64,000 nucleotides of DNA from Escherichia phage EF202P1. Position numbers and translations under genes: made by a program. The stretch lies in sequence record OP172796.1; one strand, written 5' to 3'. Below are positions 300-36,198 of the stretch, piece after piece; positions within the stretch are counted from its first letter, which is position 1; each line of letters opens with the position of its first letter. The notes beneath the pieces were generated by a model. That model did not search any database, was not told where the DNA came from, and worked only from the letters and a program-made list of their open reading frames with translations.

Positions 300-338
300 T
301 CGACGCAACGGGGCTAAATAGCCCCAGATACCTTCACA

Positions 339-360
339 GCCCCATTTAAGGGGCTTTTTT
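339..360 (+). terminator. rho-independent terminator
   Basis: GCCCC-ATTTAA-GGGGC stem-loop followed by T6. Confidence 0.7.
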
Positions 361-809
361 ACGTCTATGTAATAGCCTCTATACAATCCCTTTCCTTTCC
401 TTTCCAGAATCTTACTAGACCTTAAAAGCAATAACTCTATAGCTTACTCTATAACCTTTTATCAAATCAACTTAAATATAAGCCCATAACCCGAAAGGGA
501 AGGGCAACCGTTTAAACGCTCTATAAAGCTCTATAACAGCCTTATCAACCTAACTTAAGGGATTGCATTAACTCACCCTTAAAAGCCCTTTATAAAGCTT
601 CCCAGAGCCTTAAAAGAATCTTATAAGGGTGTAAGCTTTATTATCTCGTTAGTATCTTGTGAACTACTAAAAAGGGGCTTGTTAGTGTCTTAAAAGTATG
701 TTATAGGGGCTATAAAGTTACTTCAAAGTTACGTAAAAGAGGCTATAAAGTTACGTAAATGCTAGCCCCCTTAACATCTTCTTAACAAATTCTTAACAAT
801 CCCTACATA

Positions 810-1720
810 GTTATGCTTGTTAGCAACTTGTTAGCCCCTTGTTAAATCTCTGTTAAAACCACGTAAAAGCCTTGTAAGAGTCTTTGACATAGCCTTTAAA
901 GCTCCTGTAAAGCCTTATAAATAGGTGTCTGTATAGTTGGGGTGTAATTACTAGGAAGAGGCTTAAAAGAGCTTACAAAGAGCTATAGAGAGCTTTTAAA
1001 AGGGCTATTTAAAAGGTCACTAAGAGGGAAAGGGAACGATAAGAAAAGAGATAGTGACCGTGTTAATAGCTTGTTAAAAAGATTAAATACTTGTTAGAGA
1101 CTTGTTAATTATCTTAACAAAATAACTCTTAAAAATTAACTTGTTAGCTCTTGTTAGTCATCTGTTAAGACTCTGTAAAGACCATGTATCGACTGTTAAG
1201 AACTTGTTACAGCCTTGTTAGTTCTGTTAAGAGTCTGTTAAGACCTCTGAAGAGATGTTAAGAGCTTGAGAGAGTTGTTAAGAGATTGTTAATGATATTT
1301 TAAAATTCTGCAAAGGGGATGTTACAGGGATGTTAAGGGCTACCAAGCAGATATACATCCTAATCAGATATTTTTGAGTTCCTTCAAAGACCCTAAAAAA
1401 TGACTTGATAGCTCTATTTTATAAAAATTTTAAAATTCTGAATAATCACCTAGACAGTCTTTTAAAAATACAGGCATAAACAGGCTTATAAGATACCTTG
1501 TTAATACCGTGTTAGACCTTGTGAGATAAGGTCTGTAAAGATATTCCTGTTAAGTTTGTTAAAACAGTCTATATAGAGGCTTAGTAATACCTAGTGAACA
1601 CCTATAGAGTGTCATCTATGTGACATAGAGATTAAGAGGTGTATAGGGGCTTCTAAGAGTGTGTAGAGAGATGGTTAAGGTGATTGTATAGGTTGTTAAG
1701 AAGGCTTGTTAGAAGAGTGT
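810..1720. repeat. array of about 28 degenerate (T)TGTTA(A/G) direct repeats, densest at 1061-1337; candidate iteron/protein-binding array
   Basis: Short motif recurs every 10-20 bp in an ORF-free region (for example ttgttaga, ttgttaat, ctgttaaga, gatgttaaga); also CTATAAAG/GGCTATAAAGTTAC direct repeats at 712-757. Confidence 0.6.
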
Positions 1721-1756
1721 TTAGAAGGGCTATACAGAGGGGCTATTAAGACCACT

Positions 1757-1802
1757 AGATAGATACTAAGATACTATATAGTACTATATAACTATATATA
1801 GA
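1757..1802. repeat. AT-rich ACTATATA/AGATACTA repeat tract (possible DNA unwinding element)
   Basis: agatactaagatactatatagtactatataactatatata lies directly after the repeat array. Confidence 0.45.
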
Positions 1803-1934
1803 GAGTAAGCTTAAGAAGGTTGTTAAGAAGGGTAGATATTTTATTCACATATGATGGTGACCCAGAGGTTGGGACAACCGATAAAATTTTATAAAAATTG
1901 AAAAGCCCCCAATTAAGGAGGCTCTTAAGATATT

Positions 1935-2485
1935 TTAAATCAGTGTTTCCAGAACTGTCTTCAGTGATGACTTGGTTGTTTGATAAAAATGAGTAAATCC
2001 GTTATTGTTATCGAATACCTGCATCATGATATCATCTCCCTTGATTGGATACACTCGGATATCATAGTGAAACCCATTAAATACAGCAGAACCATTACAG
2101 AATGCTCTAAAGTCATCCACTGAGATATACTCTTCATGACCTGTGATTTTTATACAAACACCTTTACTCGGTCTCTTAGGGTTGATATCTTCCATCACAG
2201 ACATACTCTGTCCACCAAGAGAGACCATAGTGACCATTTTACGGTTCTTCTGTCTGAAGTACATCTTAACTTTCTGTAAAGTATCTTCATAGAACGGATA
2301 AGACCTTTCTACAAAGATTCCTTCAAGTGGCTCTTTACCATTTTCAACTTCTCTGTTATGCCGTACTGCAAAGATAATTTGTTGGAACCAGTCAAAATTT
2401 TCTTCGGAGAGTCCTTCCCGAATATCATTCCAGTCAAGGACTAGATAGTTACCTTCAACTTCTTTTAAGTTATCTTTTTTTTCAT
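1935..2485 (-). CDS. hypothetical protein; reading frame interrupted at an A8 run near the start (frameshift or homopolymer length error)
   Basis: ATG at 2485-2483 opens a 6-codon frame (MKKKIT*); the -1 frame is open from there to 1935 with no in-frame ATG/GTG/TTG until 2264; slippery A AAA AAG at 2480-2474. Confidence 0.4.
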
Positions 2486-2498
2486 ATCTATCACACCG

Positions 2499-2963
2499 TT
2501 ATCGTAAAACTTGGTAAGCTGGTACTGCAAACTTGTTGCCGCTGTTCTTAATGAGGTCTTCTTCTGTTACTAAGAATGTAAGACCAAACAAATGTAAATA
2601 GATGCTGTCACACTCAAATATCTTAAATAGGTATTTACCGTCATGATAAACAGACTCTACTACACCTTTTGCAACAACCTCTCCAGTCTTGAAGTCTTTA
2701 AGGCGGTATACATTACCAACTTTAGGGACTGTTTTCATCTCAGGCTCTTTTAGCTTCTCACCAACCTCTACATCACCTAGTAAGTTAGAACTTTCAAAAG
2801 CTATATGGTTCATATAAGCTTCTGAGCATTCCAAGATAAAGCAATGCACAAGAGCCTTAGCAGCATGTCTTGAACAATTCAACTTATCACAAATCTCTTT
2901 GTACATTTTATCTTTAGTTGAATTGTTAAGCATTGCTTTTTGAACTACTACTTTAATTTTCAT
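2499..2963 (-). CDS. hypothetical protein (154 aa)
   Basis: ORF in minus-strand early block; no recognisable motif. Confidence 0.6.
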   Translation of the reverse strand: MKIKVVVQKAMLNNSTKDKMYKEICDKLNCSRHAAKALVHCFILECSEAYMNHIAFESSNLLGDVEVGEKLKEPEMKTVPKVGNVYRLKDFKTGEVVAKGVVESVYHDGKYLFKIFECDSIYLHLFGLTFLVTEEDLIKNSGNKFAVPAYQVLR

Positions 2964-3016
2964 TTCGCTACCTTCTAAGTTCCTACAAAGGGGCTATCAA
3001 GTAACCCCTCAAGTTA

Positions 3017-3241
3017 TTACTCAGACTTTTCAGTCTTCTTATCAGATTTCTTACTAGTCTTCTTCTCAGCTTTCTGCTCAGGTTCCTTCTCAGAAGTTGC
3101 CTTGATAACCATATCGAGAAGCTCTGATAAGTCACTTTTCAGCAAAGTAACAGGCTGCTCATTGTAGAAGTTTTTGTCAAGATAAACTTTGAACTCTTCA
3201 ATAGATGGAAATCCAAAAATTGGTACAGGTGTCTTAATCAT
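3017..3241 (-). CDS. hypothetical protein (74 aa), Lys/Glu-rich C-terminus
   Basis: ORF; C-terminal KAEKKTSKKSDKKTEKSE low-complexity tail. Confidence 0.5.
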   Translation of the reverse strand: MIKTPVPIFGFPSIEEFKVYLDKNFYNEQPVTLLKSDLSELLDMVIKATSEKEPEQKAEKKTSKKSDKKTEKSE

Positions 3242-3317
3242 TATTTAGTTTCTCCATAGGCATCTTTTAAGATTGCCTTGTTAATCATTTCAGCGATTGC
3301 AAAACGAACACATACAG

Positions 3318-3821
3318 CTATAATTGTAGGTTGCATTCTTTACTTACCTCTTCAAGTTTAACCTCAGAGTCCTTGAGTCGTTTCTTATGAACTCTGAATC
3401 TTAGTAGTGCGATGATGATACCAACTAAAGGGACAGCATACAAGTACCAAACATCATATACCTTTGCAGTAATCTGTGTAATGGTTAAGTCTTGAGCTAT
3501 GGAACTGATTGCTGATACTACCAGTAATGTTGCTAGGAAAAATGCCAGTACCATTACCGTACTTAAACAACCTCTGGCATGGTGTTCGTGCTTAATGCAC
3601 TTATTCTTTTCGTCAACAACCCTGTTGTAGTCGTTTGTAAAGTCTCTGTAGAAAGCTTTCAAGTATTCTTTATTGTAGCCTTCAAAGCAACCTGTACCGT
3701 ACCAATAATCACCACCAAAATGTGCTATGATACCGGTATCCCCGTTTGGTTTGGTTACTCTCAAAGAAGTATGATGACGAGTATCCTGATAATCTATCTT
3801 ATATCTTTCTTCGTAAATCAT
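3318..3821 (-). CDS. hypothetical membrane protein
   Basis: ORF with two hydrophobic helices (VMVLAFFLATLLVVSAISSIA; YLYAVPLVGIIIALL); start trimmed to the ATG overlapping the upstream stop (ATGA). Confidence 0.5.
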   Translation of the reverse strand: MIYEERYKIDYQDTRHHTSLRVTKPNGDTGIIAHFGGDYWYGTGCFEGYNKEYLKAFYRDFTNDYNRVVDEKNKCIKHEHHARGCLSTVMVLAFFLATLLVVSAISSIAQDLTITQITAKVYDVWYLYAVPLVGIIIALLRFRVHKKRLKDSEVKLEEVSKECNLQL

Positions 3822-4051
3822 TTTCCAACCCCTCTCAATCGTTTGTTCCACTCAAGGTCAACAAGTCTTTGCAGGACTTTCCCTCTAGGTGTTACACCTT
3901 TTAAATCTGCATCGTAGCAACGGTAAAAGTCACCTTCAGCATGTTTACCATAGCATTTTCTGATATTCTGACTTCTACGGTATTGTTCTAATAGAGACAG
4001 TCTGTAGTAATCTTCAACTGTAGTTAGTTTTTTCATTCTTTCACCACGCAT
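3818..4051 (-). CDS. hypothetical protein (77 aa)
   Basis: ORF, stop overlaps the next start. Confidence 0.5.
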   Translation of the reverse strand: MRGERMKKLTTVEDYYRLSLLEQYRRSQNIRKCYGKHAEGDFYRCYDADLKGVTPRGKVLQRLVDLEWNKRLRGVGK

Positions 4052-4119
4052 CTTCTTAAGAAACTAAAAAGGGAACTACCTCTCGATAGCTCCCATCATA
4101 GTTAGCCTTGTATATTCGG

Positions 4120-4701
4120 TCAAGAGTATTTTTTAGGCAGTAATGCACTACGTTTGTTACTCTCTTCACTCAATAGTGCGATGAAGTCATCACCTTTACC
4201 TTTCCACGGGCTGAATGAAGGGATATGTTCACGAATAGCCTCAATAACCGTCTTAAGTGCTGTATTTTTCATCCACCAATCAGAATCTGCTGATGCTACA
4301 ACATAGTACCCGCCATCATCAGTAAGGATTGGCTCTGAGATACATGGTGAAATCAGAGTGGTGATGATTGAACCATTATTCATGTAGTATGTGCGCTTCA
4401 TAACCTTTTCAAGAAGCTTGTGAAGGTCACCAAACAGTGTTACAAGCTCTTTGTGGTCAATGTCTTTTTCGAGATTTGCTCGATACTTCAAAAGTGCAGC
4501 ATCAACTTCTCTGTCATTAAACTTGAAGTACTGGACTTCCTCAACAAGACAAACACTGATGTTGTTGACATTCATAGTCAACTTGCAGACTTTTGCAGGA
4601 GAATTGATATTTGGTTGAAAAAGTGCAATACACCCTTCAATGTTTCCAAAATGTTGTACTAATGTCACTTGTGGAGTGATACTCTGTTGCTCTTCGGACA
4701 T
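4120..4701 (-). CDS. hypothetical protein (193 aa)
   Basis: ORF in coupled gene series. Confidence 0.6.
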   Translation of the reverse strand: MSEEQQSITPQVTLVQHFGNIEGCIALFQPNINSPAKVCKLTMNVNNISVCLVEEVQYFKFNDREVDAALLKYRANLEKDIDHKELVTLFGDLHKLLEKVMKRTYYMNNGSIITTLISPCISEPILTDDGGYYVVASADSDWWMKNTALKTVIEAIREHIPSFSPWKGKGDDFIALLSEESNKRSALLPKKYS

Positions 4702-5045
4702 TACAGTTTCCTCATTAAATACTTTTTAAGTTGTGTGTTAGGTTTCTCAAAAACTTCTATAGAAGATATCTTGACAGATTCACCACGCATACCTGTATGT
4801 TTGAATATATAGTACTCTAACATCCCTATATACTTTGCTGGTAAGTCATGTTTGACATACACCGTTACAGAATCTTCAAATTCAACAACCTTTGTACCAT
4901 CTTTGTAGTTAAACTCTTTAGGATGGTCGTAGTTGTCGATATCGTACATTAAAAAGAGTCTTTTCCGTTGCATATCAAGCTTATTGGTTAAAGACTCTTT
5001 GATATCTGAGAAGTTTTTGTACACTGTGACATGGAGCTTACTCAT
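4701..5045 (-). CDS. hypothetical protein (114 aa)
   Basis: ORF, start/stop coupled. Confidence 0.6.
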   Translation of the reverse strand: MSKLHVTVYKNFSDIKESLTNKLDMQRKRLFLMYDIDNYDHPKEFNYKDGTKVVEFEDSVTVYVKHDLPAKYIGMLEYYIFKHTGMRGESVKISSIEVFEKPNTQLKKYLMRKL

Positions 5046-5337
5046 CGTTAAACTCTCTGACGAAGAAATAATTGACTTTGTTATTACCTACCATAAGGTC
5101 AAAGCAGGTGTTCTCAAAAGGTTTGTTGTAGGCATCATATGAAGTGTACGTATCAGCTACTTGTTTAGTATTGAGCTTTTTACTTGATGGATTTAAGAGG
5201 CCACCATACAGTTTCTTGATAGCCTCTTCTACAACAGACCAGATGATTTCGTCAGTAATTTCTTCGTACAGGTCAAGTTCACGTTCTAGTGAGAAGTCAC
5301 AAATAGGGAAAATAACCTGTACTTTACTCATTAGCAA
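5038..5337 (-). CDS. hypothetical protein (99 aa)
   Basis: ORF, start/stop coupled. Confidence 0.55.
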   Translation of the reverse strand: MLMSKVQVIFPICDFSLERELDLYEEITDEIIWSVVEEAIKKLYGGLLNPSSKKLNTKQVADTYTSYDAYNKPFENTCFDLMVGNNKVNYFFVREFNDE

Positions 5338-5726
5338 ATGACCTGTGTTACCTGAATAGCTTCAGTTACTGACAAATCACCAACCGTTTCTTCTTTGACG
5401 AAGGTGAAGGTAAGCTCAACAGGCTCTTGTTCTTCCTGCTCAACCGGAATACCGTTAAGCTCATCAAAGATTGATTGAGTTGTCCAGTCTTCTCCACCAT
5501 CTGGATAGTGGATTGCGTAAAGTGGAAACTCTAAATTATACCAAGCAAAAACAGGGCAACCATCTGCATCATCTCGACATCTGTGGAGATATGTGTTTGT
5601 GCCTTCAAAATGCAAATGGAGATTACCATTCTTCTCAAAGAGAAGAGCATCTTGCAGGTCAAGTTCCTCATTTTCGCTGTAACGGCTGACATCAACTTTA
5701 ACGTGAATATGACTGTTATTATTCAT
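5331..5726 (-). CDS. hypothetical protein (131 aa)
   Basis: ORF, start/stop coupled. Confidence 0.6.
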   Translation of the reverse strand: MNNNSHIHVKVDVSRYSENEELDLQDALLFEKNGNLHLHFEGTNTYLHRCRDDADGCPVFAWYNLEFPLYAIHYPDGGEDWTTQSIFDELNGIPVEQEEQEPVELTFTFVKEETVGDLSVTEAIQVTQVIC

Positions 5727-6117
5727 AAAAACCTCTCTCTGCTTGTTCGATTTTCGCTTTTAGAACTTCACACCGTTCAATGTGATATCTGGCTTCATGT
5801 TCATGTGTCGCCAAAGTTCTTTCAAGAATGGTTTTATAGTAACCTGCAAGTTGCTCTCTTGTCAATGGGTTCTCTGAAATAATATCGAGACCACTTTCAC
5901 CAAGAGTATTAAACTGCCCATGTTCATTTACATGATAAGTCTCAAACTTGAATAAACCGTTATTAGCAGATTCAATAGGCGATAGTTCAACCAACTCAAC
6001 AGTGAACATTGTGTGCACCCTATCACCAACTGTAACAATGTTACTTCCAATGATGCGTACAAGCGAACCATTACGAGTGTACTTAAAAGTCCCAAAGTCA
6101 CTAGCCCAAAGCTTCAT
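5719..6117 (-). CDS. hypothetical protein (132 aa)
   Basis: ORF immediately downstream of a minus-strand terminator. Confidence 0.6.
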   Translation of the reverse strand: MKLWASDFGTFKYTRNGSLVRIIGSNIVTVGDRVHTMFTVELVELSPIESANNGLFKFETYHVNEHGQFNTLGESGLDIISENPLTREQLAGYYKTILERTLATHEHEARYHIERCEVLKAKIEQAERGFYE

Positions 6118-6131
6118 AGTTTTCTCCTTAG

Positions 6132-6158
6132 AAAATAAAAAAGGCTCCCGAAGGAGCC
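6132..6158 (-). terminator. rho-independent terminator (minus strand)
   Basis: GGCTCC-CGAA-GGAGCC hairpin with T-run on the minus strand, just after the lysozyme gene. Confidence 0.65.
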
Positions 6159-6168
6159 TATGAAGATA

Positions 6169-6633
6169 TTACTTTGGGTATACACTGTCAAGATAAATGT
6201 CAGCTTCCATTCTACGTCTGTTTTTCAGGCCGTTTGAAGTGACCTTCTTACCTTTGACTGTAACCTTGTTCCACCACTGCATAGCTTCTGCACAACCTAC
6301 CTTATTACCAGCATTGTGGCGCTTGATAAATGTAGAATCCTGCATAGCTGTGATACCGATGTTGTATGTTTCACTTACAAGTGCATCGAACTCGTTCTGA
6401 GAAGTTGGAACCTTGATAGCTTTATTCACTGCTGCAACGAACTTCTCAACATCTGCAAGAAGATACTGTTCAGCTTGTTCAGCAGTAATTTTCATACCCA
6501 TCTTAACAGGTTTTCCGTCAATACGGATTGTACCATACCCGATTGTTGGGATTCCGGCAGAGTCTTCGTAAGCCTCTAACTTCAGACCTTCAAAGAACTT
6601 AATAGCTTCTAAACCTTTTCTTGAGAGTTGCAT
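6169..6633 (-). CDS. phage lysozyme / endolysin (T4 e-type, GH24-like)
   Basis: LEAYEDSAGIPTIGYGT motif typical of T4-type lysozymes; 154 aa. Confidence 0.8.
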   Translation of the reverse strand: MQLSRKGLEAIKFFEGLKLEAYEDSAGIPTIGYGTIRIDGKPVKMGMKITAEQAEQYLLADVEKFVAAVNKAIKVPTSQNEFDALVSETYNIGITAMQDSTFIKRHNAGNKVGCAEAMQWWNKVTVKGKKVTSNGLKNRRRMEADIYLDSVYPK

Positions 6634-7517
6634 TATGCCTCCCCTGTTGGGTTAACTGTAACTGTTGCCGCATTAGATGTTACAGAGCCACCTGCACCAG
6701 TAACTACACAAGTGTAGCTTCCTGCATCAGCAGCAGTTGCACCTTCTTTGGTGTAAGTTGCAGCAGTTGCGTCTGGGATGACTTCCTCACCTTTCTTCCA
6801 CTGGTAACCTGTTGCACCTGTTGCAGTCACTGCTAAGTTGATGTTCCCACCTTCATTGATGGTCTGACTAGAAGGTTGTTTGGTAATCACTGGTAAGGCG
6901 TTCACAGTAACTGTTGCTGCATCTGAGGTAACACTTGTTCCAGCCTCTCCAGATACAACACAAGTGTATGAACCAGCGTCAGAAGGCGCTACAGACTGTT
7001 TTGTGTAAGTTGCAGAAGTGGCACTGGGGATGTCCTCACCATCCTTCTTCCACTGATAGCCAGTGGCGTTAGTTGCTAGAACACTTAGAGTGAGTGTACC
7101 GCCCTCATTGACTGTTTGGCCTGTTGGTTGCTGAGTAATTGCTGGTGGCTTAATAGCATCTTTCAGCTTAGCATTCAACATTGAGAAAGGCTTAACTCTT
7201 GCCAGCCATTCACAATAAACTGTATCAACGTCTTTACCATTGATAATTGCGTATTGTAAATCCATGAAGAAGTCAGAAGTTCTCATTTGAGCACCGATGC
7301 TGTAAAGCAAATCATCACTAAAAGGGACTTTGTAGTCTGGTTTGTAGTCAAACTTCTCAACTTCTGCGATATCAGCTTCAGGCCAATATGAACTATAGGT
7401 AAGTGGTAAAATAGCTTCTTGATATGTTCTAAAATCATACCTCTTACCAGCCTTTACATTTGCAACGAAACCCTTTACAAATTCTTTGAAGTCTGGGTAA
7501 GTCTTTGCTTTAATCAT
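6633..7517 (-). CDS. protein with N-terminal domain paralogous to the 7514-7885 product plus two tandem Ig-like domains
   Basis: Two ~85-aa repeats (YQWKKDGEDIPSATSATYTK...AGSYTCVV) with Ig I-set-like signature; N-terminal ~120 aa resemble the adjacent ORF. Confidence 0.7.
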   Translation of the reverse strand: MIKAKTYPDFKEFVKGFVANVKAGKRYDFRTYQEAILPLTYSSYWPEADIAEVEKFDYKPDYKVPFSDDLLYSIGAQMRTSDFFMDLQYAIINGKDVDTVYCEWLARVKPFSMLNAKLKDAIKPPAITQQPTGQTVNEGGTLTLSVLATNATGYQWKKDGEDIPSATSATYTKQSVAPSDAGSYTCVVSGEAGTSVTSDAATVTVNALPVITKQPSSQTINEGGNINLAVTATGATGYQWKKGEEVIPDATAATYTKEGATAADAGSYTCVVTGAGGSVTSNAATVTVNPTGEA

Positions 7518-7885
7518 TTCTTTTTAGCCTCTAAACGTGCGTTTAATCTAAAATAGCCTTTATGTTGTGGAGACACATCACTAACAACAATACCTTCAAC
7601 TTTATAACCCTTACCAATTACATACTGGATATCCATAAGAAACGTACCAAGCCCAACAATGTGGAACATTGGGTATAGCAACTTATCTGAATCTGGGAGT
7701 TTAATTTCTGGGTTATAGGTGGGTTGTTCGGCGGTTGGTGTAATATCCTCTTCAGGCCATTTACTCATTCTCCATGTTAAAGGTGATGCAACAACATCGT
7801 TAAGATTGTATCTTTCACCATTCTCCACGGAGTGGATATAGGATTGTAGGAAGCAATAAAAGTCTTTTGCACTCTTAGCCTTCAT
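7514..7885 (-). CDS. hypothetical protein, paralog of the N-terminal domain of the 6633-7517 product
   Basis: Shared order of motifs (KDF..F...V..G.RY; WPE(E/A)DI; LLY; FxMD(I/L)QY). Confidence 0.65.
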   Translation of the reverse strand: MKAKSAKDFYCFLQSYIHSVENGERYNLNDVVASPLTWRMSKWPEEDITPTAEQPTYNPEIKLPDSDKLLYPMFHIVGLGTFLMDIQYVIGKGYKVEGIVVSDVSPQHKGYFRLNARLEAKKK

Positions 7886-7899
7886 TAAATATCCTTATA

Positions 7900-7923
7900 A
7901 ACAGATAAAGGGGCATCAGCCCC
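7900..7923 (-). terminator. hairpin terminator (likely minus strand)
   Basis: GGGGC-ATCA-GCCCC hairpin flanked by T-rich sequence on the minus strand. Confidence 0.5.
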
Positions 7924-7932
7924 TGTTTATAC

Positions 7933-8523
7933 TTAAGCTTTGGTCTTAAGTAGGTTCTTAAGTTTTTTGAGATTCATGCTCTCGTCAAACTTAAAACCAA
8001 ATCCATTGACATAATCAATGAACTCGGATTTCTTACTAAGTGATAGTGCGTAACTCATATCAAAGTTATTACTTGTTTCTGCGTCTGGACTAGAGTTCAC
8101 ATCAAATGAAATTTCTGTAGGCTCTTGCTTGCTACTTCTCATATTATCAATCAATAGACAGGTGTAGTTCGCTGGATAGAAGTTAACACTCCCATCAACA
8201 TACCCATACTTATTATTGTGAATAAGGCTGGAAAATACCTTAAGAAATGTTTCTGAGTCGTGGCATACAAGTTTGAATTGACTGCATTCCCCAAGAGCCA
8301 CTAAAGAGTAAGGGCTTTCACTATCAATGTCATAGTTTGGATTTGATGTTGTAACCGTCACACGCATCAAGTTATTAGCAATAGTCTTCTGCTTGAAAGA
8401 ATTTGGGACATAGTGAAGACCTCTATCACACTGATTAACTAGCTCTTTCAATAGGTCATTTGCATATGGTGAATTAATTGATACAGAGCCATCACTATTA
8501 TAATTAAAACTTACTGTTAACAT
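7933..8523 (-). CDS. hypothetical protein (196 aa)
   Basis: ORF. Confidence 0.6.
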   Translation of the reverse strand: MLTVSFNYNSDGSVSINSPYANDLLKELVNQCDRGLHYVPNSFKQKTIANNLMRVTVTTSNPNYDIDSESPYSLVALGECSQFKLVCHDSETFLKVFSSLIHNNKYGYVDGSVNFYPANYTCLLIDNMRSSKQEPTEISFDVNSSPDAETSNNFDMSYALSLSKKSEFIDYVNGFGFKFDESMNLKKLKNLLKTKA

Positions 8524-8750
8524 TTTTCAGTTCTCCTGCGATTTATGATTTTGCTGCAATAGAGAAACGAAGTAAACTCACTGGAAGAAACCATTAAGTG
8601 TTGTTCACTAGATTGAGCCATTGCCCTGAAATACATTCCAGTCAAAGCATCGTAGTGACTATTCTTTCCAATTGAGGTTATATAGCCATGACTCTTTGCA
8701 GTTTTATATAAATCTATAATATCTGCGATTTCTAATTGGGAACTACACAT
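8517..8750 (-). CDS. hypothetical protein (77 aa)
   Basis: ORF overlapping the downstream start. Confidence 0.45.
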   Translation of the reverse strand: MCSSQLEIADIIDLYKTAKSHGYITSIGKNSHYDALTGMYFRAMAQSSEQHLMVSSSEFTSFLYCSKIINRRRTEKC

Positions 8751-8914
8751 AGATAATCCTCTTGTCTTCTGTAATTTTGAAAGAACAGGTACAGACCAAT
8801 TTCAGAGGATGAATAGTAGAGTAACTCTACCCTTTTTGATTCCTTACAGTGATTGGTATTTTTACCTTTCTTCGGGTTGTTTGATTTTCTCATTAAGTCT
8901 CCTTTGTAGAACAA
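8732..8914 (-). CDS. hypothetical small basic protein (60 aa)
   Basis: Short ORF at the head of the minus-strand block. Confidence 0.35.
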   Translation of the reverse strand: MFYKGDLMRKSNNPKKGKNTNHCKESKRVELLYYSSSEIGLYLFFQNYRRQEDYLCVVPN

Positions 8915-8991
8915 GGCAGACCTACAGCTTTAAGTAAGATGGTACAGTAATCCATACAACAAGTCAAGAACTATTGCAAGTTAAAAAAGTT

Positions 8992-9016
8992 GTTGACAAA
9001 GTACTTGACAAGGTGT
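8992..9016 (+). promoter_or_regulatory. conserved 25-bp tandem-TTGACA element (GTTGACAAAGTACTTGACAAGGTGT), candidate early promoter/operator
   Basis: Near-identical copy at 51497-51521; both sit in divergent intergenic regions upstream of the first plus-strand gene of a block. Confidence 0.5.
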
Positions 9017-14562: not shown

Positions 14563-15120
14563 ATGAGATATTTGAAGTATGCTTCATGGATTTTCTTAGC
14601 TTTGTTAGAGCCATTTGCAGCAATCTTAGCAGTTATCTTAGCACCTTTCGTAGTTCCATTCTACAGTGAGAAGAAAGGACATCTCCCTTTTGGATTCAGA
14701 TGGATGGAGACATATGATAACCCAATTGATGGTGATGAAGGCCACGTTAAAAGATGGGCTAAGATTAGAAAGATTGGTAAGCTTGGTGTCTATATGCAGA
14801 GAGTTGGTTGGCTCTGGAGAAACAAAGCTTATAACTTCTCTTACCATGTGTTAGGAAGAGATGTAAAAGATGTTACTAAGTGGAAAGGCAATATCAATGT
14901 AAGTTCTAACCCTGAAGATAATCAGACAGGTTATCTCCTAATGTGGAACAGTAATGCTTGGGGATTATTCGCTTTTGTACCATCAATTAAAATCTTTGGT
15001 AAACAATTCTACTGGAGAATTTATGTTGGGTGGAAACTTAAAAGTGTTGTCCCAGAAGAAAGAGCATTCTCAAGGGAAAGAGTTATGTTGGCATTCTTTA
15101 TTCATCCACTAAGAAAATAA
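14563..15120 (+). CDS. hypothetical membrane-anchored protein (185 aa) embedded in the tRNA cluster
   Basis: N-terminal hydrophobic stretch WIFLALLEPFAAILAVILAPFVVPF; Trp-rich; AGAGG RBS. Confidence 0.65.
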   Translation: MRYLKYASWIFLALLEPFAAILAVILAPFVVPFYSEKKGHLPFGFRWMETYDNPIDGDEGHVKRWAKIRKIGKLGVYMQRVGWLWRNKAYNFSYHVLGRDVKDVTKWKGNINVSSNPEDNQTGYLLMWNSNAWGLFAFVPSIKIFGKQFYWRIYVGWKLKSVVPEERAFSRERVMLAFFIHPLRK

Positions 15121-15128
15121 AGATTTAA

Positions 15129-15204
15129 AGGGGATTAGTTTACAAGGTTAAAACCTCGGTCTTTGAAATCGAAGAAGTTGGTTCAATTCCAACATCCCCC
15201 GCCA
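15129..15204 (+). tRNA. tRNA-Gln (anticodon TTG)
   Basis: Acceptor AGGGGAT/ATCCCCC, anticodon loop CTTTGAA, T-arm GTTGG-TTCAATT-CCAAC, G73, CCA. Confidence 0.6.
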
Positions 15205-15206
15205 AT

Positions 15207-15285
15207 GCTCCATTACTCCAATTGGCAGAGAGGCCAGACTTAAAATCTGTGTTATGTATCGGTTCGAATCCGATATGGAGTACCA
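15207..15285 (+). tRNA. tRNA with Leu-type anticodon (TAA) but short variable arm
   Basis: Acceptor GCTCCAT/ATGGAGT, anticodon loop CTTAAAA, T-arm ATCGG-TTCGAAT-CCGAT, A73, CCA. Confidence 0.5.
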
Positions 15286-15290
15286 AATTT

Positions 15291-15366
15291 AGCGGTATAG
15301 CATAACTGGCAATGCAGCAGTCTCTGAAGCTGTCTTATTAAGGTTCAAATCCTTATGCCGCTGCCA
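15291..15366 (+). tRNA. tRNA-Gln-like (anticodon CTG; register uncertain)
   Basis: Acceptor AGCGGTA/TGCCGCT, D-arm GCAT-AACTGGCA-ATGC, loop CTCTGAA with wobble-paired stem, T-arm TAAGG-TTCAAAT-CCTTA, G73, CCA. Confidence 0.45.
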
Positions 15367-15397
15367 CTTCTAAGGGTTCTTATGAGAGTCCTTAAAT

Positions 15398-15473
15398 GTG
15401 GCCTTATCATAAAAGGTAATGACCCATGCTGTGAACATGGTCTATACGGGTTCAAATCCCGTAGGTCACCCCA
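15398..15473 (+). tRNA. tRNA-His (anticodon GTG)
   Basis: Acceptor GTGGCCT/AGGTCAC, anticodon arm CCATG-CTGTGAA-CATGG, T-arm ACGGG-TTCAAAT-CCCGT, C73, CCA. Confidence 0.7.
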
Positions 15474-15479
15474 ATTTAT

Positions 15480-15555
15480 AGTCCAAGTAGCTTATATGGT
15501 TAAAGCGCGTGTCTGAAAAACATGAGAAGAGGGTTCAAATCCCACTGGACTACCA
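15480..15555 (+). tRNA. tRNA-Phe (anticodon GAA)
   Basis: Acceptor AGTCCAA/CTGGACT, anticodon loop CTGAAAA, T-loop TTCAAAT, A73, CCA. Confidence 0.6.
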
Positions 15556-15571
15556 ATTTCAAAGGTGCTTA

Positions 15572-16306
15572 ATGAAAGAGATGACAGAACAAGGTAAGGA
15601 GATTTTTAATCTCTTAAAAACCGGTAGAGGGTTTTCTAATCCCCTTATTACTGGTGCAGCAGTTCTAGGTGGAACCGTGGCTGCCTCTACATCACTTGTA
15701 AGCTCTATTAGCTCTGTAACAGACCCTACAATGAAGGATAAGCTCATTGCTGCTGGACTTACAACAGTTCTGCTTAATAGCTTTACAACGAGTCTGACAA
15801 GCACTACATCAACTACTAAGACATTGACAGATTATGGTCAAAAGTCTATTGATGAGTTTTCTTCACGTATGCAGGTAGCAAAAGGCTACTCCAATGTTAT
15901 GGGTGCAGCAGGAGAGCAAGTCGGTTGTACACCATTTAGTGGTATTATGGGTGTTGCTACAGAATATGGTCAAAAAGCTATTGACACAATTAACAGTGCA
16001 CTAGATGGTGTTAATGGTGTATTAAGCGACTTACAAGATGCTATTGACAAAGGTCTTGATACTATTTCTGATTTAGCTAACCAAGCTGTTAGCAAGATTA
16101 ATGAGGGTATCTCAAAGATTACAGCTTATGCAGATGAAGTTGTGCAGATGATTGAAGAAGAAGCTGCCCTTATTGCAGAGTACCTTAAAACGAATATCAA
16201 TGGGTTCTTAGCAGGTATCTTACCAGACTGGTTTGATGATGCTTGTAAAACTGGTGTGATTGACACTATTGCAACACCAGAAATGAAGAACGCATTACAG
16301 AAATAA
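15572..16306 (+). CDS. hypothetical protein (244 aa), Ser/Thr-rich N-terminal region
   Basis: ORF; start moved to ATG 15572 because the longer ORF would overlap tRNA-Phe. Confidence 0.6.
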   Translation: MKEMTEQGKEIFNLLKTGRGFSNPLITGAAVLGGTVAASTSLVSSISSVTDPTMKDKLIAAGLTTVLLNSFTTSLTSTTSTTKTLTDYGQKSIDEFSSRMQVAKGYSNVMGAAGEQVGCTPFSGIMGVATEYGQKAIDTINSALDGVNGVLSDLQDAIDKGLDTISDLANQAVSKINEGISKITAYADEVVQMIEEEAALIAEYLKTNINGFLAGILPDWFDDACKTGVIDTIATPEMKNALQK

Positions 16307-16307
16307 T

Positions 16308-16400
16308 GGAAGATTAACCCTAAAAGGTAAGGGAGCAGTTTGCTAAACTGCCAGTAGCTGAGAAATCGGTGTACCAGTTCAAGTCTGGTATCTTCCTCCA
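16308..16400 (+). tRNA. tRNA-Ser (anticodon GCT), long variable arm
   Basis: Acceptor GGAAGAT/ATCTTCC, anticodon arm GCAGT-TTGCTAA-ACTGC, long variable arm, T-arm ACCAG-TTCAAGT-CTGGT, CCA. Confidence 0.7.
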
Positions 16401-16404
16401 ATTT

Positions 16405-16480
16405 GAATCCGTGACAGAAATGGCTATGTGCCTGTCTGCAAAACAGGTTTATAAGGGTTCGAGTCCCTTCGGATTCTCCA
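16405..16480 (+). tRNA. tRNA-Cys (anticodon GCA)
   Basis: Acceptor GAATCCG/CGGATTC, anticodon arm CCTGT-CTGCAAA-ACAGG, T-loop TTCGAGT, U73, CCA. Confidence 0.7.
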
Positions 16481-16517
16481 AGTTATTTTACTCTCTCTCA
16501 ATTAAAATAATAATAAT

Positions 16518-16577
16518 GCCCTGCTATAAGTATTCTTCCTTTCGCTACTGAAGAGTATTTTTAGACAGGGCTTTTTT
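16518..16577 (+). terminator. terminator hairpin with T-run after the tRNA cluster
   Basis: GCCCTG...CAGGGC stem followed by TTTTTT. Confidence 0.55.
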
Positions 16578-16642
16578 ACAGAGTTATACTTTATAAGAAG
16601 CCTTATACAGTATGTCTCTGACGTACATTGTGGTTTCTCCTT

Positions 16643-16666
16643 GACGGTCTCTGCACCGTCTTTTTT
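16643..16666 (+). terminator. rho-independent terminator
   Basis: GACGGT-CTCTGC-ACCGTC followed by T6. Confidence 0.7.
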
Positions 16667-16702
16667 AAGGAGAAACATAATTAATTATTTGGAGAAAACA
16701 TA

Positions 16703-16903
16703 ATGAGCGAGACCGTTTATAAAGAACTTTATGAAGCTAACAAAAAGCTGGAATTTATGCAGAACACTATCATGGCAATTGCAGACAGATTATCTGTAGC
16801 AACAGGTATTGATATTAAAGAGGCATCTATGGATGCACTTCTTGATGCTGTTGATGCTAAATTCGAAGTTAAGAAAGAAGAGACTGCTACAGACTCTGAA
16901 TAA
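16703..16903 (+). CDS. hypothetical protein (66 aa) upstream of terminase; possible small terminase-associated protein
   Basis: ORF with GGAG RBS; position only. Confidence 0.45.
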   Translation: MSETVYKELYEANKKLEFMQNTIMAIADRLSVATGIDIKEASMDALLDAVDAKFEVKKEETATDSE

Positions 16904-16924
16904 TTCTATTTGCGGAGGTGCTTA

Positions 16925-18526
16925 ATGGATTTAAATGCTGTTAAGCAGAAGCGAGTGGAAGATGTTAGGAAAGTCCTAGCTGGAGAGTTGGGGCTTTCTG
17001 ATGAAGTAAAAGAAATTATCAAATCATTCGGTAAAGACCCCTCTAAATTCCTTCCAACTCAAATTCTGACTTTATTAAGATACACACCAGACCAAGTTAG
17101 ACTTATCTTCAAATTGATGACTGATAAGAACTATGTAGCCCCTCAGCCGGGTTCTCAAGAGGTGTTTTTAAATACTAATGCTGACTTGGTTCTATATGGT
17201 GGTGCTGCTGGTGCTGGTAAAACTGCTGCATTGTTAATGGACTCTTTAAGGTTTATTGAAGACCCTAACTATAATGCTGTATATTTCCGTAGAAATACAA
17301 CACAGTTACAAGGTGGTTTATGGCCTGCTGCAAAGAAACTATTTGGTAAGTTTGGCGGGGTTCCTCATGAGCAGAAGATGACTATCACATTCCCTTCTGG
17401 GGCAACTATCAAGTTCACCTACTTAGAACTTGAAAAGCACGCTGAAGGTCATCAGGGTATTGAATACTCAGCTATCTACTTTGACGAAGGTACACACTTC
17501 TCTGCTTCACAGATTTCATACCTACAGACCCGTCTACGTTCTGGTGCTGAAGGTGATTCATACATGAAAATTTCTATGAACCCAGATAGAGACCACTTCA
17601 TTTATGATTGGGTAGAGCCATTCTTAGATGAAGAAGGTTACCCAGACCCTGAGAAATGTGGTCGTATTCGTTGGTATGTTATGAATGATGGTGTGATGGT
17701 TTCTGATTGGGAGAGAGACAAGATTCTTGAAATGTTCCCTCTTGAGATTCCTCAGACATACACCTTCATCTCTGGTACGATTGATGATAACCCAATTCTT
17801 GACTTCTTGGAACCTAAGTATCGTGGTAAGTTGGAAAACAACACACCTGTAAACGTTGCAAGACTTCGTTTCGGTAACTGGAAGGCTCGTGCAGAAGGTT
17901 CAAACTATTGGCAAAGACAGTGGTGTGAGATTGTTGATTCACTCCCAGAAGATGTGTTTGATGTCAGAGCATGGGACTTAGCAGCAACTTTACCATCTGA
18001 AATTAACCCTAACCCAGACTGGACAGCGGGTGTTAAGATGGGTAAATCTAAAAAAGACGGTTGCTATTATATCATTGATGTAGTAAGATTTAGAGATAGA
18101 CCCTCTGGAGTCGAAACACAAATTAATTTGACTGCTGAAAGTGACGGTAAGCGAACTGGTATTTTTATCCCTCAAGACCCAGGCGCTGCTGGTAAATCCT
18201 ATGCAACATCCCTCATCAGGAAACTTGCCGAGAAAGGTTATCGAGCAAGAGCTAAACCAACAAATAAAGATAAAGTTACCCGCTTTGCGGGATTTTCTGC
18301 TGCTTCTGAAGCTGGACTTGTAAAAGTTTTGAGAGGCAGTTGGAACGAAGCTTACTTTCAAGAACTTGAAGGTTTTTGTGGTGATGGTAAAACTAAAGAT
18401 GACCAAGTGGATGCTACCAGTGATGCTTTCAACAGTCTTAACGAAGTTAAATTATTCAAGCCACCATCAATGGGTGCTCACACAGACTTAGTGAGAGGAA
18501 ACCCATATGAGGGGCTTAGACGTTGA
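16925..18526 (+). CDS. terminase large subunit
   Basis: Walker A (LYGGAAGAGKT) in the N-terminal ATPase region, acidic residues in the C-terminal nuclease-like region, located directly before the portal gene; ATG 16925 with GGAGG RBS preferred over TTG 16910. Confidence 0.8.
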   Translation: MDLNAVKQKRVEDVRKVLAGELGLSDEVKEIIKSFGKDPSKFLPTQILTLLRYTPDQVRLIFKLMTDKNYVAPQPGSQEVFLNTNADLVLYGGAAGAGKTAALLMDSLRFIEDPNYNAVYFRRNTTQLQGGLWPAAKKLFGKFGGVPHEQKMTITFPSGATIKFTYLELEKHAEGHQGIEYSAIYFDEGTHFSASQISYLQTRLRSGAEGDSYMKISMNPDRDHFIYDWVEPFLDEEGYPDPEKCGRIRWYVMNDGVMVSDWERDKILEMFPLEIPQTYTFISGTIDDNPILDFLEPKYRGKLENNTPVNVARLRFGNWKARAEGSNYWQRQWCEIVDSLPEDVFDVRAWDLAATLPSEINPNPDWTAGVKMGKSKKDGCYYIIDVVRFRDRPSGVETQINLTAESDGKRTGIFIPQDPGAAGKSYATSLIRKLAEKGYRARAKPTNKDKVTRFAGFSAASEAGLVKVLRGSWNEAYFQELEGFCGDGKTKDDQVDATSDAFNSLNEVKLFKPPSMGAHTDLVRGNPYEGLRR

Positions 18527-27939: not shown

Positions 27940-28178
27940 ATGGGTAACACTCTACAGACACCACTAACTGATGCTGCTGTAGAGGCAACCTATGAAGAAG
28001 CAGACGAGATGAAATTTGTGCTTGCTATTTATGGTATGGAAGGGTGTAAAGAAACACTTGACCAACTCTTTGCTATGACATTCTCTGATTTATTATCATT
28101 GAGACAATTTCTTGAAATTCAGAGGTCGTATAAAGAGGAAATTGCTTACAACGAACTTAGAAGAGCAGGAAAAATGTA

Positions 28179-28179
<1 letters not shown>
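27940..28179 (+). CDS. tail assembly chaperone frameshift extension (GT-like); probably expressed as a 27539-28179 fusion by -1 frameshift
   Basis: ORF lies in the -1 frame relative to 27539-27937 and is continuous with it after a slip at 27895-27901. Confidence 0.5.

Positions 28180-36198
<8,019 letters not shown>

Follow-up and report, generated by a model that had tools for sequence, protein, structure and literature searches.

The gene-free stretch near the beginning of the window (the whole 64,000-nucleotide sequence of Escherichia phage EF202P1, record OP172796.1, that was analyzed) most likely represents the concatemer junction of a Felix O1-like phage, with a probability that we put at about 60%. 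According to this reading, the stretch is both the beginning and the end of the linear chromosome, and an array of TGTTA words within it would, as far as the sequence suggests, consist of helically phased protein-binding sites that organize end cutting and packaging. A direct terminal repeat (DTR) known from relatives maps to this stretch and is bracketed by an inverted repeat, and the motif is enriched, phased with the helix, polar and conserved. The array is probably a docking track for a protein helping to cut and package the DNA.

The window comes from a Felixounavirus (a Felix O1-like myovirus); the region is 94.7% identical to that of AYO145A, and 256 phage records match it. No open reading frame (ORF) of at least 30 aa was found on either strand at 432-1897, in line with an earlier note on this DNA that had called the region gene free. 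The same note had placed a terminator at 339-360, which was confirmed at 338-355 plus a T-run. The flanking transcription units, described there as divergent, in fact converge on the region: the plus-strand gene at 51-299 has its own terminator, and the minus-strand gene on the other side stops at 1935 and is followed by a terminator at 1926-1901. The argument drawn from divergent transcription therefore fails. The region is organized as follows.

338-361, plus strand: intrinsic terminator (338-355 and the T-run) closing the gene at 51-299, the last plus-strand gene of the right arm; also annotated in AYO145A
361-764, no strand: sub-terminal non-coding stretch preceding the right-hand DTR copy in virion DNA, with near-invariant blocks at 455-512 and 596-643
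692-757, plus strand: 33-nt direct repeat immediately beyond the left DTR boundary, with GGCTATAAAGTTAC at 708-721 and again at 741-754
763-778, plus strand: element TAGCCCCCTTAACATC at the left boundary, forming one of the two inverted-repeat arms; cut mapped between 764 and 765
765-1344, no strand: DTR of 580 bp, with physical ends at 765 (left) and 1344 (right), placed from the ends of relatives
771-798, minus strand: three inverted motif copies (TTAACA on the plus strand; hits at 772, 783 and 794), with 11-bp spacing, facing the left boundary
816-856, plus strand: four direct CTTGTTA copies (818, 829, 840 and 851), with a spacing of exactly 11 bp
857-1060, no strand: central DTR segment without TGTTA, with six copies of the TAAA(A)G family
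1061-1340, plus strand: main array of 17 TGTTA copies, consensus roughly CTTGTTA(A/G)nA
1095-1140, no strand: invariant AT-rich block (15% G+C) with the palindrome TTGTTAA-ttatc-TTAACAA (1102-1120), which contains the sole internal inverted copy
1308-1362, no strand: right boundary block, the most conserved part of the region, with the arm GATGTTAAGGGCTA (1329-1342) followed by AAGCAGATATACA; cut mapped at 1344/1345
1345-1934, plus strand: sub-terminal non-coding stretch that comes after the left-hand DTR copy, with seven further TGTTA copies
1901-1926, minus strand: intrinsic terminator closing the left-arm minus-strand gene cluster; annotated in AYO145A too

The sequence represents the genome in collapsed or permuted form, which is why the DTR is seen once in the window. 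With this single copy, the ends of this phage were deduced from those of relatives. Exact DTRs were found at both record ends of I14.1 (581 bp), CRP22 (579 bp), E9 (580 bp) and SeKF_63 (613 bp), four records from three sources. They all begin with GCCCCCTTAACAT and finish with TGTTAAGGGCTACC, and their identical boundaries correspond to positions 765 and 1344 of the window; therefore, the core of the array sits inside the DTR. In a sample of 60 records, five opened at window position 765 and one at 1344. The FIfi106 record (OR284297.1) was rejected as an end marker, as it is not opened at the termini. The same sequence thus stands at both ends, as in T7-type genomes, in four Felixounavirus records and also in Kolesnikvirus M7, and would do so in this phage.

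Short DTRs in Felix O1-like phages have already been published. UAB_Phi87 was assigned a 608-bp DTR by Bal31 digestion and run-off sequencing, its terminal fragments being Bal31 sensitive (PMC4837284), and its record has 614 bp in the homologous interval. PhageTerm called a 613-bp DTR in vB_EcoM-Ro111lw (PMC6454146), and "short terminal repeats" were described for Felix O1 (PMC3185647). PhageTerm DTRs were also given for six coliphages in one announcement, with the accessions of I14.1, E9 and H12 among them (PMC11737134), and in a further report (PMC11984208); the majority of the mapped boundaries are PhageTerm-style assignments. Judging from the published passages on UAB_Phi87, Ro111lw and Felix O1, their DTRs are the same element, agreeing in length and position with the interval in the window. 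Those passages give the length and type of the ends and describe no TGTTA array, phasing, polarity or boundary inverted repeat. The array polarity, the boundary inverted repeat, the column conservation and the recurrence in Kolesnikvirus reported here are new detail. The published SpeI fragments of UAB_Phi87 were not exactly reproduced: the boundaries predict terminal fragments of 2747 and 4435 bp versus the published 2819 and 4322 bp, a deviation of 72 and 113 bp (~3%). One possible reason is a different sequence version, the record having 87,603 bp and the paper giving 87,669 bp (PMC4837284). The earlier note had proposed an origin, a partition site or a genome-end/packaging region. The last of these options is supported by the exact DTRs of relatives, whose ends map to 765 and 1344, and by the published DTRs of 608 to 613 bp; the other two gained no positive support (see below).

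The array was then quantified. The earlier note had counted about 28 densely packed repeats, and this density is real: 27 TGTTA copies lie on the plus strand at 810-1720 versus 1.55 expected from the remaining window (Poisson P = 3e-24), far above what local composition predicts. Within the DTR (765-1344), 21 copies were found versus 0.98 expected (P = 6e-21), an enrichment of about 20-fold. Dinucleotide-preserving shuffles of the local sequence (n = 2000) gave a mean of 1.5 to 3.2 copies and a maximum of 7 to 10. The densest 300 nt (1032-1331) have 17 plus-strand copies, and elsewhere in the 64 kb there are at most 3 per 300 nt. Neighboring sites are most commonly spaced by exactly 11 bp (12 of 29 cases), the best period over all site pairs within 66 nt is 10 to 10.5 bp (R = 0.71 to 0.73), and the mean phasing of the main array over 1194-1287 is ~10.3 bp per unit. 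The polarity of the motif flips at about 800-815, so that the copies point outward to both DTR boundaries; the inverted copies at 771-798 are kept in all seven aligned genomes. Beyond the DTR, 7 TGTTA copies occur at 1345-1934 versus 1.0 expected (P = 8e-5), mostly in pairs (1499/1510, 1548/1557, 1694/1707 and the single copy at 1821).

Other repeats accompany the array. The central DTR segment contains an inverted repeat formed by GGTCACTA (1015-1022) and TAGTGACC (1052-1059). A second repeat family with two copies, placed at 712-757 in the earlier note, was located as GGCTATAAAGTTAC at 708-721 and 741-754. A family ending with TAAAG or TAAAAG, a pattern picked after the data had been viewed, is carried by 361-764, with nine copies of the family versus 0.6 expected. 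A CRISPR array, which needs 24- to 50-bp repeats with unique spacers of similar length, was ruled out, as the note had also concluded: the units are ~11 bp long with a 5-bp core, and there are no spacers. The intrinsic curvature of the array, calculated with a wedge model, was unremarkable (end-to-end/contour ratio of 0.868 versus a genome mean of 0.899 +/- 0.054).

The DTR is bracketed by the inverted repeat TAGCCC(CC)TTAACATC, with one arm at each boundary. The sequence ATGTTAAGGG is present at both boundaries in inverted orientation, and only one other exact copy exists in the 64 kb. Each boundary has two outward-facing motif copies no more than ~25 nt away, in addition to this inverted element, an arrangement like that of the elements flanking pac and cos sites. 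The cuts are not strictly symmetric about the inverted repeat, the first TTAACA being 6 nt away on one side and 8 nt on the other.

We also compared the region among relatives. Across Felixounavirus, Mooglevirus and Suspvirus, 90% of the motif columns are invariant versus 58% of the remaining DTR columns (Fisher P = 4e-12), and the TGTTA copy number stays at 19 to 22 in seven genomes. The indels among relatives come in units of 11 and 22 nt, and DTR length ranges from 579 to 614 bp. The non-coding DNA is ~80% identical between genera, and the adjacent 82-aa protein only 49 to 52%. In the Erwinia phages of the genus Kolesnikvirus, M7 has an exact 444-bp DTR whose ends lie 2 to 3 nt from the homologous positions, and eleven of the records listed open at most 10 nt from the predicted left boundary. 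The array recurs there with the same motif and boundary positions (20 TGTTA copies versus 1.9 expected), and part of the right boundary block is retained (TTTGCAAAGG ... AAGCAGATATACA). Megablast with the region of either group retrieved no phages of the other. No comparable array was found in the first 26 kb of Pakpunavirus JG004, from a related terminase lineage, and no DTR was located in this phage. The helical phasing and the higher conservation of the motif columns lend indirect support to the suggestion in the earlier note that the repeats are protein-binding sites.

Taken as a T7-type junction, the region could work as follows. The interval 765-1344 would be a single collapsed DTR copy, with 361-764 and 1345-1934 as the right-end and left-end sub-terminal DNA. 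The TGTTA words, lying on one face of the helix and facing outward, would be bound by a sequence-specific phage protein. In this way, a nucleoprotein complex would form that marks the junction and places the large terminase at the two inverted boundary elements TAGCCC(CC)TTAACATC, leading to staggered, opposite-strand nicks at 764/765 and 1344/1345. Strand-displacement synthesis across the repeat after nicking would then provide each packaged chromosome with its own DTR copy. Duplication of the DTR by nicking and strand displacement has been proposed for T7-type phages.

The likeness to T7 and T3 includes a short, exact and probably non-permuted DTR at the junction and a short word repeated in one orientation with regular spacing in and around it. 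T7 has 13 copies of CCTAAAG, three of them inside the DTR and many at 13-bp spacing, and the TAAAG core recurs with the same 13-bp spacing just inside its left arm; a second Felix O1-type family likewise ends with TAAAG or TAAAAG. The T7 arrays beside the 160-bp DTR were reportedly named SRL and SRR by Dunn and Studier in 1983. However, here the DTR itself contains the main array, whereas in T7 most of it flanks the repeat. The spacing is ~10.4 bp, i.e., the helical repeat, instead of 13 bp, the polarity changes close to the left boundary, and the DTR is 3.6 times longer. Moreover, the phage, a myovirus, has a large terminase of the T4 type and no recognized small subunit, and we know of no phage RNA polymerase promoter here such as that used in T7 packaging. 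In the pac site of P1, 7 copies of the PacA-bound hexamer TGATCA/G are distributed over 162 bp to either side of the cleavage point, and packaging is by headful and under Dam control. The two systems share a short word on both sides of the terminase cut, but about 25 copies and two fixed cuts 580 bp apart are found here, and GATC is absent from the whole window. P2 Cox boxes, lambda Xis sites and the ribbon-helix-helix arrays of ParR and omega are bound cooperatively, with 3 to 10 sites at promoters, attachment sites or centromeres. They resemble the present array in having short cores about one turn apart whose orientation matters; in contrast, our search turned up no homologous protein in this phage. 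None of those systems is known to fill a phage terminal repeat.

The proteins that might act on the junction are encoded elsewhere in the window.

9143-9514, plus strand: DUF5681 protein (123 aa; pI 9.95), whose N-terminal arm is very basic
16910-18526, plus strand: large terminase TerL (Terminase_6N/6C), expected to make the cuts at both DTR boundaries

The TerL sequences of 201 records match this TerL with an identity of 99% or more, and the Kolesnikvirus TerL does so with 69%. To our knowledge, no subunit that recognizes DNA has been described for the terminase of Felix O1-like phages. The TerL clade is tied to T7-type ends, being placed in a "Felixounalikevirus DTR group" (PMC4837284). Upstream of TerL, no match to a TerS family was found, and no small subunit of the kind usually encoded beside TerL in pac and cos phages was identified there; the same paper also remarks on the lack of a recognized small terminase (PMC4837284). 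A 66-aa ORF upstream of TerL, without a family, is an improbable DNA binder because it is strongly acidic by residue count. For the N-terminal 110 residues of TerL, the single-sequence model was unusable (pLDDT 41.7), Pfam gave no match, and a homologue search returned three fragments only. The DUF5681 protein is a weak candidate for the array binder, as suggested by its sequence. It has a 60% identical counterpart at the equivalent position in SunLIRen; its model (pLDDT 68.5) had no PDB fold match with E < 2, and no sequence match was found in PDB or NCBIfam.

The right boundary block is also partly retained in an 11.6-kb E. coli chromosomal island, which in addition has tape-measure and Dit-like genes of the Felix O1 type. 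In the island, the block sits upstream of a Dam-Rep gene pair, and an adjoining second segment is homologous to the 9-kb intergenic region of the phage. The TGTTA array is absent from the island. Therefore, if the block is the terminase signal, the array may be dispensable for recognition. CAGATAT boxes common to phage and island were not clearly enriched (17 versus 10 +/- 3.2). A more speculative extension, which we regard as tentative, is that the packaging machine includes a cryptic DNA-recognition subunit specific to Ounavirinae, for which the array would be the loading track. Candidates would be the DUF5681 protein, which is basic, and the ~70 N-terminal residues of TerL, which are lineage specific. 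An oriented filament growing from the polarity switch would set both cuts and hence the length of the DTR, the right block would be the minimal terminase signal, and the island would represent a new kind of satellite exploiting these phages.

We considered it unlikely that the array is instead a replication or recombination element, in which TGTTA sites would act like iterons for a phage initiator or annealing protein and 1095-1140 would be the unwinding element, so that replication or concatemers start from the DTR. The phased direct repeats do adjoin an invariant block with 15% G+C, the motif is conserved across the subfamily, and T7-type phages use their DTRs as the substrate for forming concatemers. 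However, scans for DnaA, IHF, Fis and Chi consensus sequences found nothing in the DTR, and none of the four neighboring ORFs matched an initiator family, their matches being families of unknown function. The array unit, a 5- to 8-bp core at one-turn spacing, differs from the 17- to 22-bp iterons of known origins, and neither such iterons nor an adjacent initiator gene was found; the outward polarity and the boundary inverted repeat suit cutting better than initiation. Thus, the replication origin suggested in the earlier note found no positive support, with no DnaA or IHF consensus in the DTR and no initiator among the eight ORFs scanned. Outside the DTR, one DnaA-like box is present at 1841.

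A function in DNA entry or regulation, such as coating of the entering DNA, end protection, a pause in ejection or transcription control near the ends, also appears improbable. Phage T5 offers an example, its first-step-transfer stop pausing ejection. Motif pairs reach ~500 bp past the DTR into the left-end sub-terminal DNA, and the shared block immediately beyond the right boundary, upstream of the Dam-Rep gene pair in the island, together with the second shared segment looks regulatory. Against this, sigma-70-like sites were not above chance (11 versus 7.4 +/- 2.4 expected), which left the promoter scan uninformative, and a search of the region against Rfam gave a single sub-threshold chance match and no family. 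Both flanks close with inward-facing terminators and there is no downstream plus-strand gene, and the literature cited here contains no report of stepwise ejection in the Felix O1-like group.

It is very improbable that the repeats are functionless by-products of slippage in unconstrained terminal DNA. Slippage does happen: relatives differ by indels in 11- and 22-nt steps, and their DTRs are between 579 and 614 bp long. However, the motif columns are far more invariant than the rest of the DTR (90% versus 58%), the copy number is steady (19 to 22 in the seven genomes), the phase follows the helical repeat, the motif persists in Kolesnikvirus in spite of divergence, and the region is more conserved than the neighboring protein gene. 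By analogy, the phased short repeats may recall ParR-type centromeres, such as R1 parC with its 11-bp repeats. A plasmid-type centromere with a ParR- or ParB-like adaptor, the partition site of the earlier note, can nevertheless be dismissed as having no positive support: none of the eight ORFs scanned (four beside the region and four around TerL) matched a partition-gene family, neither an adjacent operon nor a plasmid-like state was found, no plasmid records matched the region, the array coincides with the DTR, and published work calls the Felix O1-like phages strictly virulent (PMC7764154).

Even for T7, it is poorly understood how short terminal repeats are recognized, cut on two sides and duplicated. 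In the concatemer junction proposed here, the DTR offers unusually regular and strongly conserved candidate sites, a clear polarity and symmetric boundary elements, so footprinting, junction-plasmid packaging assays and targeted mutagenesis are easy to design. The Felix O1-like group is widely used in Salmonella typing and biocontrol, and the two boundary sequences allow assemblies of these phages to be opened at their true ends. A few GenBank records carry unnamed "repeat_region" features in the region.

The region was 94.7% identical to that of Escherichia phage vB_EcoM_AYO145A and matched 256 phage records, nearly all from Felixounavirus or close relatives. Together with 25 tRNA genes, the window carries the following two genes, and this organization is that of a Felix O1-like myovirus.

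16910-18526, T4-type large terminase (TerL)
18534-20009, Mu-type portal

Neither strand has an ORF of at least 30 codons from the terminator at 338-355 to the stop codon of the first minus-strand gene at 1935, in agreement with the ORF-free stretch described in the earlier note. The flanking transcription units, described there as divergent, in fact converge on the region, with an inward-facing terminator at the end of each; both terminators are annotated in AYO145A as well. The claimed motif enrichment held: TGTTA occurred on the plus strand 27 times in 810-1720 and 21 times in 765-1344, whereas its density elsewhere in the window predicts 1.55 and 0.98 copies, and local dinucleotide-preserving shuffles contained at most 10. 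The densest 300-nt stretch (1032-1331) held 17 plus-strand copies, compared with no more than 3 anywhere else in the 64 kb. A second repeat family, GGCTATAAAGTTAC, was likewise present, at 708-721 and 741-754. The array consensus was approximately CTTGTTA(A/G)nA. Of 29 spacings between neighboring motifs, 12 were exactly 11 bp, and over all pairs of sites up to 66 nt apart, a period of 10 to 10.5 bp fitted best (R = 0.71 to 0.73). Therefore, the motif copies lie on one face of the helix.

The physical genome ends were located by comparison with relatives. Of 60 sampled records, 5 with a match split by the record ends started exactly at the homologue of window position 765, and one ended at that of 1344. 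Exact repeats at both ends were found in four records (I14.1, 581 bp; CRP22, 579 bp; E9, 580 bp; SeKF_63, 613 bp), all beginning with GCCCCCTTAACAT and finishing with TGTTAAGGGCTACC; the matching interval in the window is 765-1344 (580 bp). According to a genome announcement listing the accessions of I14.1, E9, and H12 among others, PhageTerm gave direct terminal repeats (DTRs) in its six coliphages (PMC11737134). For UAB_Phi87, independent experiments, with Bal31 digestion followed by run-off sequencing, are described as giving a DTR of 608 bp (PMC4837284); in its record, the homologous interval spans 614 bp. From the mapped boundaries, terminal SpeI fragments of 2747 and 4435 bp were predicted for UAB_Phi87, an inexact match, to about 3%, with the two Bal31-sensitive bands given as 2819 and 4322 bp (PMC4837284). 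A T7-like DTR of 613 bp is described for Ro111lw (PMC6454146), and a mismatch of genome size with sequence length led the authors of the Felix O1 genome paper to infer short terminal repeats (PMC3185647). These results fix the position of the genome ends, and 765-1344 is almost certainly the DTR. Of the origin, partition, and packaging or genome-end roles suggested earlier, it was thus the last that these terminal repeats and published DTRs bore out. The window thus shows the genome in collapsed form, with a single copy of the DTR; in virion DNA, 361-764 lies ahead of the right-hand copy, and 1345-1934 comes after the left-hand one. The features of the DTR are as follows.

771-798, three inverted motif copies (TTAACA) with 11-bp spacing, just inside the left boundary
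About 800-815, switch of motif polarity
818-851, four direct motif copies with exactly 11-bp spacing
Central 200 bp, without TGTTA, with a second family ending in TAAAG or TAAAAG and an inverted repeat, GGTCACTA / TAGTGACC
1061-1335, main array of 17 direct copies
1102-1120, palindrome TTGTTAA-ttatc-TTAACAA, the single break in the main array

With inverted copies on the left and direct copies on the right, the motif thus faces outward to both boundaries. The two boundaries carry the same element in opposite orientations (TAGCCCCCTTAACATC at 763-778 and GATGTTAAGGGCTA at 1329-1342), and the 10-mer ATGTTAAGGG, present at both, has just one further exact copy in the 64 kb. The cuts as mapped fall 6 and 8 nt beyond the final motif copy. 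Seven more TGTTA copies, mostly paired, were found in 1345-1934.

We then aligned the region with two other Felixounavirus, three Mooglevirus, and one Suspvirus genomes. Invariant columns made up 90% of the motif columns in the DTR versus 58% of the others (Fisher P = 4e-12), motif copy number was 19 to 22, and indels came in units of 11 and 22 nt. The best-conserved blocks were 455-512, 596-643, 1095-1140, 1308-1362 (across the right boundary), and 1774-1804. The noncoding DNA was about 80% identical between genera, whereas the adjacent 82-aa protein was merely 49 to 52% identical, and only about 60% even among Felixounavirus genomes with a 92%-identical noncoding region. SunLIRen, a Kolesnikvirus phage infecting Erwinia whose TerL is 69% identical to that of the window, has an equivalent ORF-free gap between convergent genes, with 20 TGTTA copies (1.9 expected), a switch from inverted to direct copies, and the right-boundary words TTTGCAAAGG and AAGCAGATATACA. 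Its right-end flank (16380-16730 of the examined locus) repeats CTTCTAA(G/A), with TTCTAA found 12 times against 0.9 expected; the flank word is thus CTTCTAA in Kolesnikvirus where Felixounavirus has the TAAA(A)G family, while the TGTTA array is common to both. Homology predicted the left end of SunLIRen at about 16833, and at least 11 Kolesnikvirus records open within 10 nt of it; Kolesnikvirus phage M7 has an exact 444-bp DTR ending 2 to 3 nt from the homologous positions. Megablast with either region returned no phages of the other group, so the common motif has outlasted the surrounding sequence. The enrichment, phasing, polarity, and conservation of the array and the inverted repeat at the boundaries are established features.

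We examined the T7 sequence directly: 13 CCTAAAG copies surround its 160-bp DTR or, in three cases, lie within it, and the TAAAG core recurs at a regular 13-bp spacing just within the left arm. The junction architecture is of the same kind, but the T7 array lies mostly beside the DTR instead of inside it, its spacing is 13 bp rather than the helical repeat, the window array has a polarity switch, and the terminases differ in kind. The retrieved passages of papers on Felix O1-like termini give solely the length and type of end, with no description of a TGTTA array; a few GenBank records have unnamed repeat_region features at the DTR site. We therefore take the element as the already known short DTR of Felix O1-like phages, and its internal organization and conservation across four genera as new.

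The array is likely a protein-binding track. A sequence-specific phage protein would load cooperatively onto the phased sites along a single helical face of the DTR, and the resulting complex would mark the concatemer junction and place TerL at both boundary elements. Their inverted orientation would lead the same enzyme to nick one strand at 764/765 and the opposite strand at 1344/1345. Strand-displacing extension from both 3' ends would then copy the DTR, so that each daughter chromosome would have one. Duplication by nicking and strand displacement has been proposed as a general scheme for phages of the T7 type. For the whole statement, a DTR whose phased protein-binding array organizes end cutting and packaging, we estimate a probability of about 0.6. 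An unsurprising kind of element, the DTR offers a clean, testable entry point to the recognition and duplication of short terminal repeats.

A replication or recombination element is an unlikely alternative, to which the invariant AT-rich block would be suited; the DTR has no DnaA or IHF site, a scan of the four neighboring ORFs gave no match to an initiator family, and the geometry is wrong for iterons. Slightly less probable is a role in entry, end protection, or regulation. The motif pairs outside the DTR fit this role, as does the regulatory look of a sequence shared with an E. coli island (see below), but promoter-like sites were not above chance and transcription would have no downstream target. 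Neutral slippage is improbable, being contradicted by the conservation data, and a partition site, with nothing but a general resemblance in its favor, is highly improbable.

We next considered which protein could bind the array as a packaging track. No family match was obtained for a small terminase, the ORF upstream of TerL encodes an acidic product of 66 aa, and the N-terminal 70 or so residues of TerL could be aligned within Ounavirinae only. A weak candidate for the binder is the product of the following ORF.

9143-9514, plus strand, basic DUF5681 protein of 123 aa with the invariant arm KKGxSGNPxGRPKGSRN

It is conserved from Felixounavirus to Kolesnikvirus, where a protein at the same position is 60% identical, and Pectobacterium phages; searches for structural and functional matches returned none. 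The intergenic DNA upstream (9000-9140) contains the word family CTTAAAAG / CTTATAAG / GCTATTTAAA, as in the DTR flanks, and a palindrome, CAGATATCTTTCTGGATATCT, 84% identical to one directly upstream of a Dam gene in the E. coli island.

When E. coli genomes were searched for distant matches, three chromosomes had the right-boundary block, two of them as a weak match. In strain 40EC, it lies within an island of 11.6 kb integrated into a DUF72 gene (NZ_CP070920.1, about 1957285-1968884; about 886-12485 of the extracted locus), with a DNA invertase and a large serine recombinase at its edges. The island is homologous to window 1281-1442, 9056-9111, and 28169-31012, and has the following genes.

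Dam-type methylase
O-like replication initiator
Felix O1-type tape-measure protein, related to window 28179-30410
Dit-like protein, with 71.5% identity to that encoded at window 30410-31207

It retains GATATTTTAAAATTCTGCAAAGGGG (25/25 bases) and the cut-site-like GGGTACTAAACACATATACAT, followed by the next words, and contains no TGTTA array or left-boundary element. The island resembles a satellite of Felix O1-like phages, a candidate for which no paper joining a phage satellite with Felixounavirus was found. If so, the transferable signal may be the boundary block and not the array. Retention of the block without the array weakens the case for an array requirement in terminase recognition, and this evidence counts against a role of the array in end cutting and packaging.

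GATC was absent from both strands of the 64 kb, against 183.9 ± 12.1 sites expected from dinucleotide-preserving shuffles, which implies strong avoidance of a GATC-specific restriction or Dam-linked system. The 25-tRNA cluster (11178-16480) lies upstream of the terminase, with a 265-aa DUF7217 ORF (15509-16306) between tRNA genes. Phage I14.1 (PP892526.1) is filed as Tequintavirus, and its ends and genes are Felix O1-like; Felixounavirus sequence also occurs in one phage record labeled "Staphylococcus" and in a protein entry labeled "Staphylococcus aureus", which suggests contamination or mislabeling. The first gene within the left end (1935-2264, with 2309-2437, both minus strand) is probably truncated or split in EF202P1: the 1935-2264 product is only 109 aa long, compared with 182 aa in relatives, and covers only positions 92-200 of the 200-position phrog_4330 profile.
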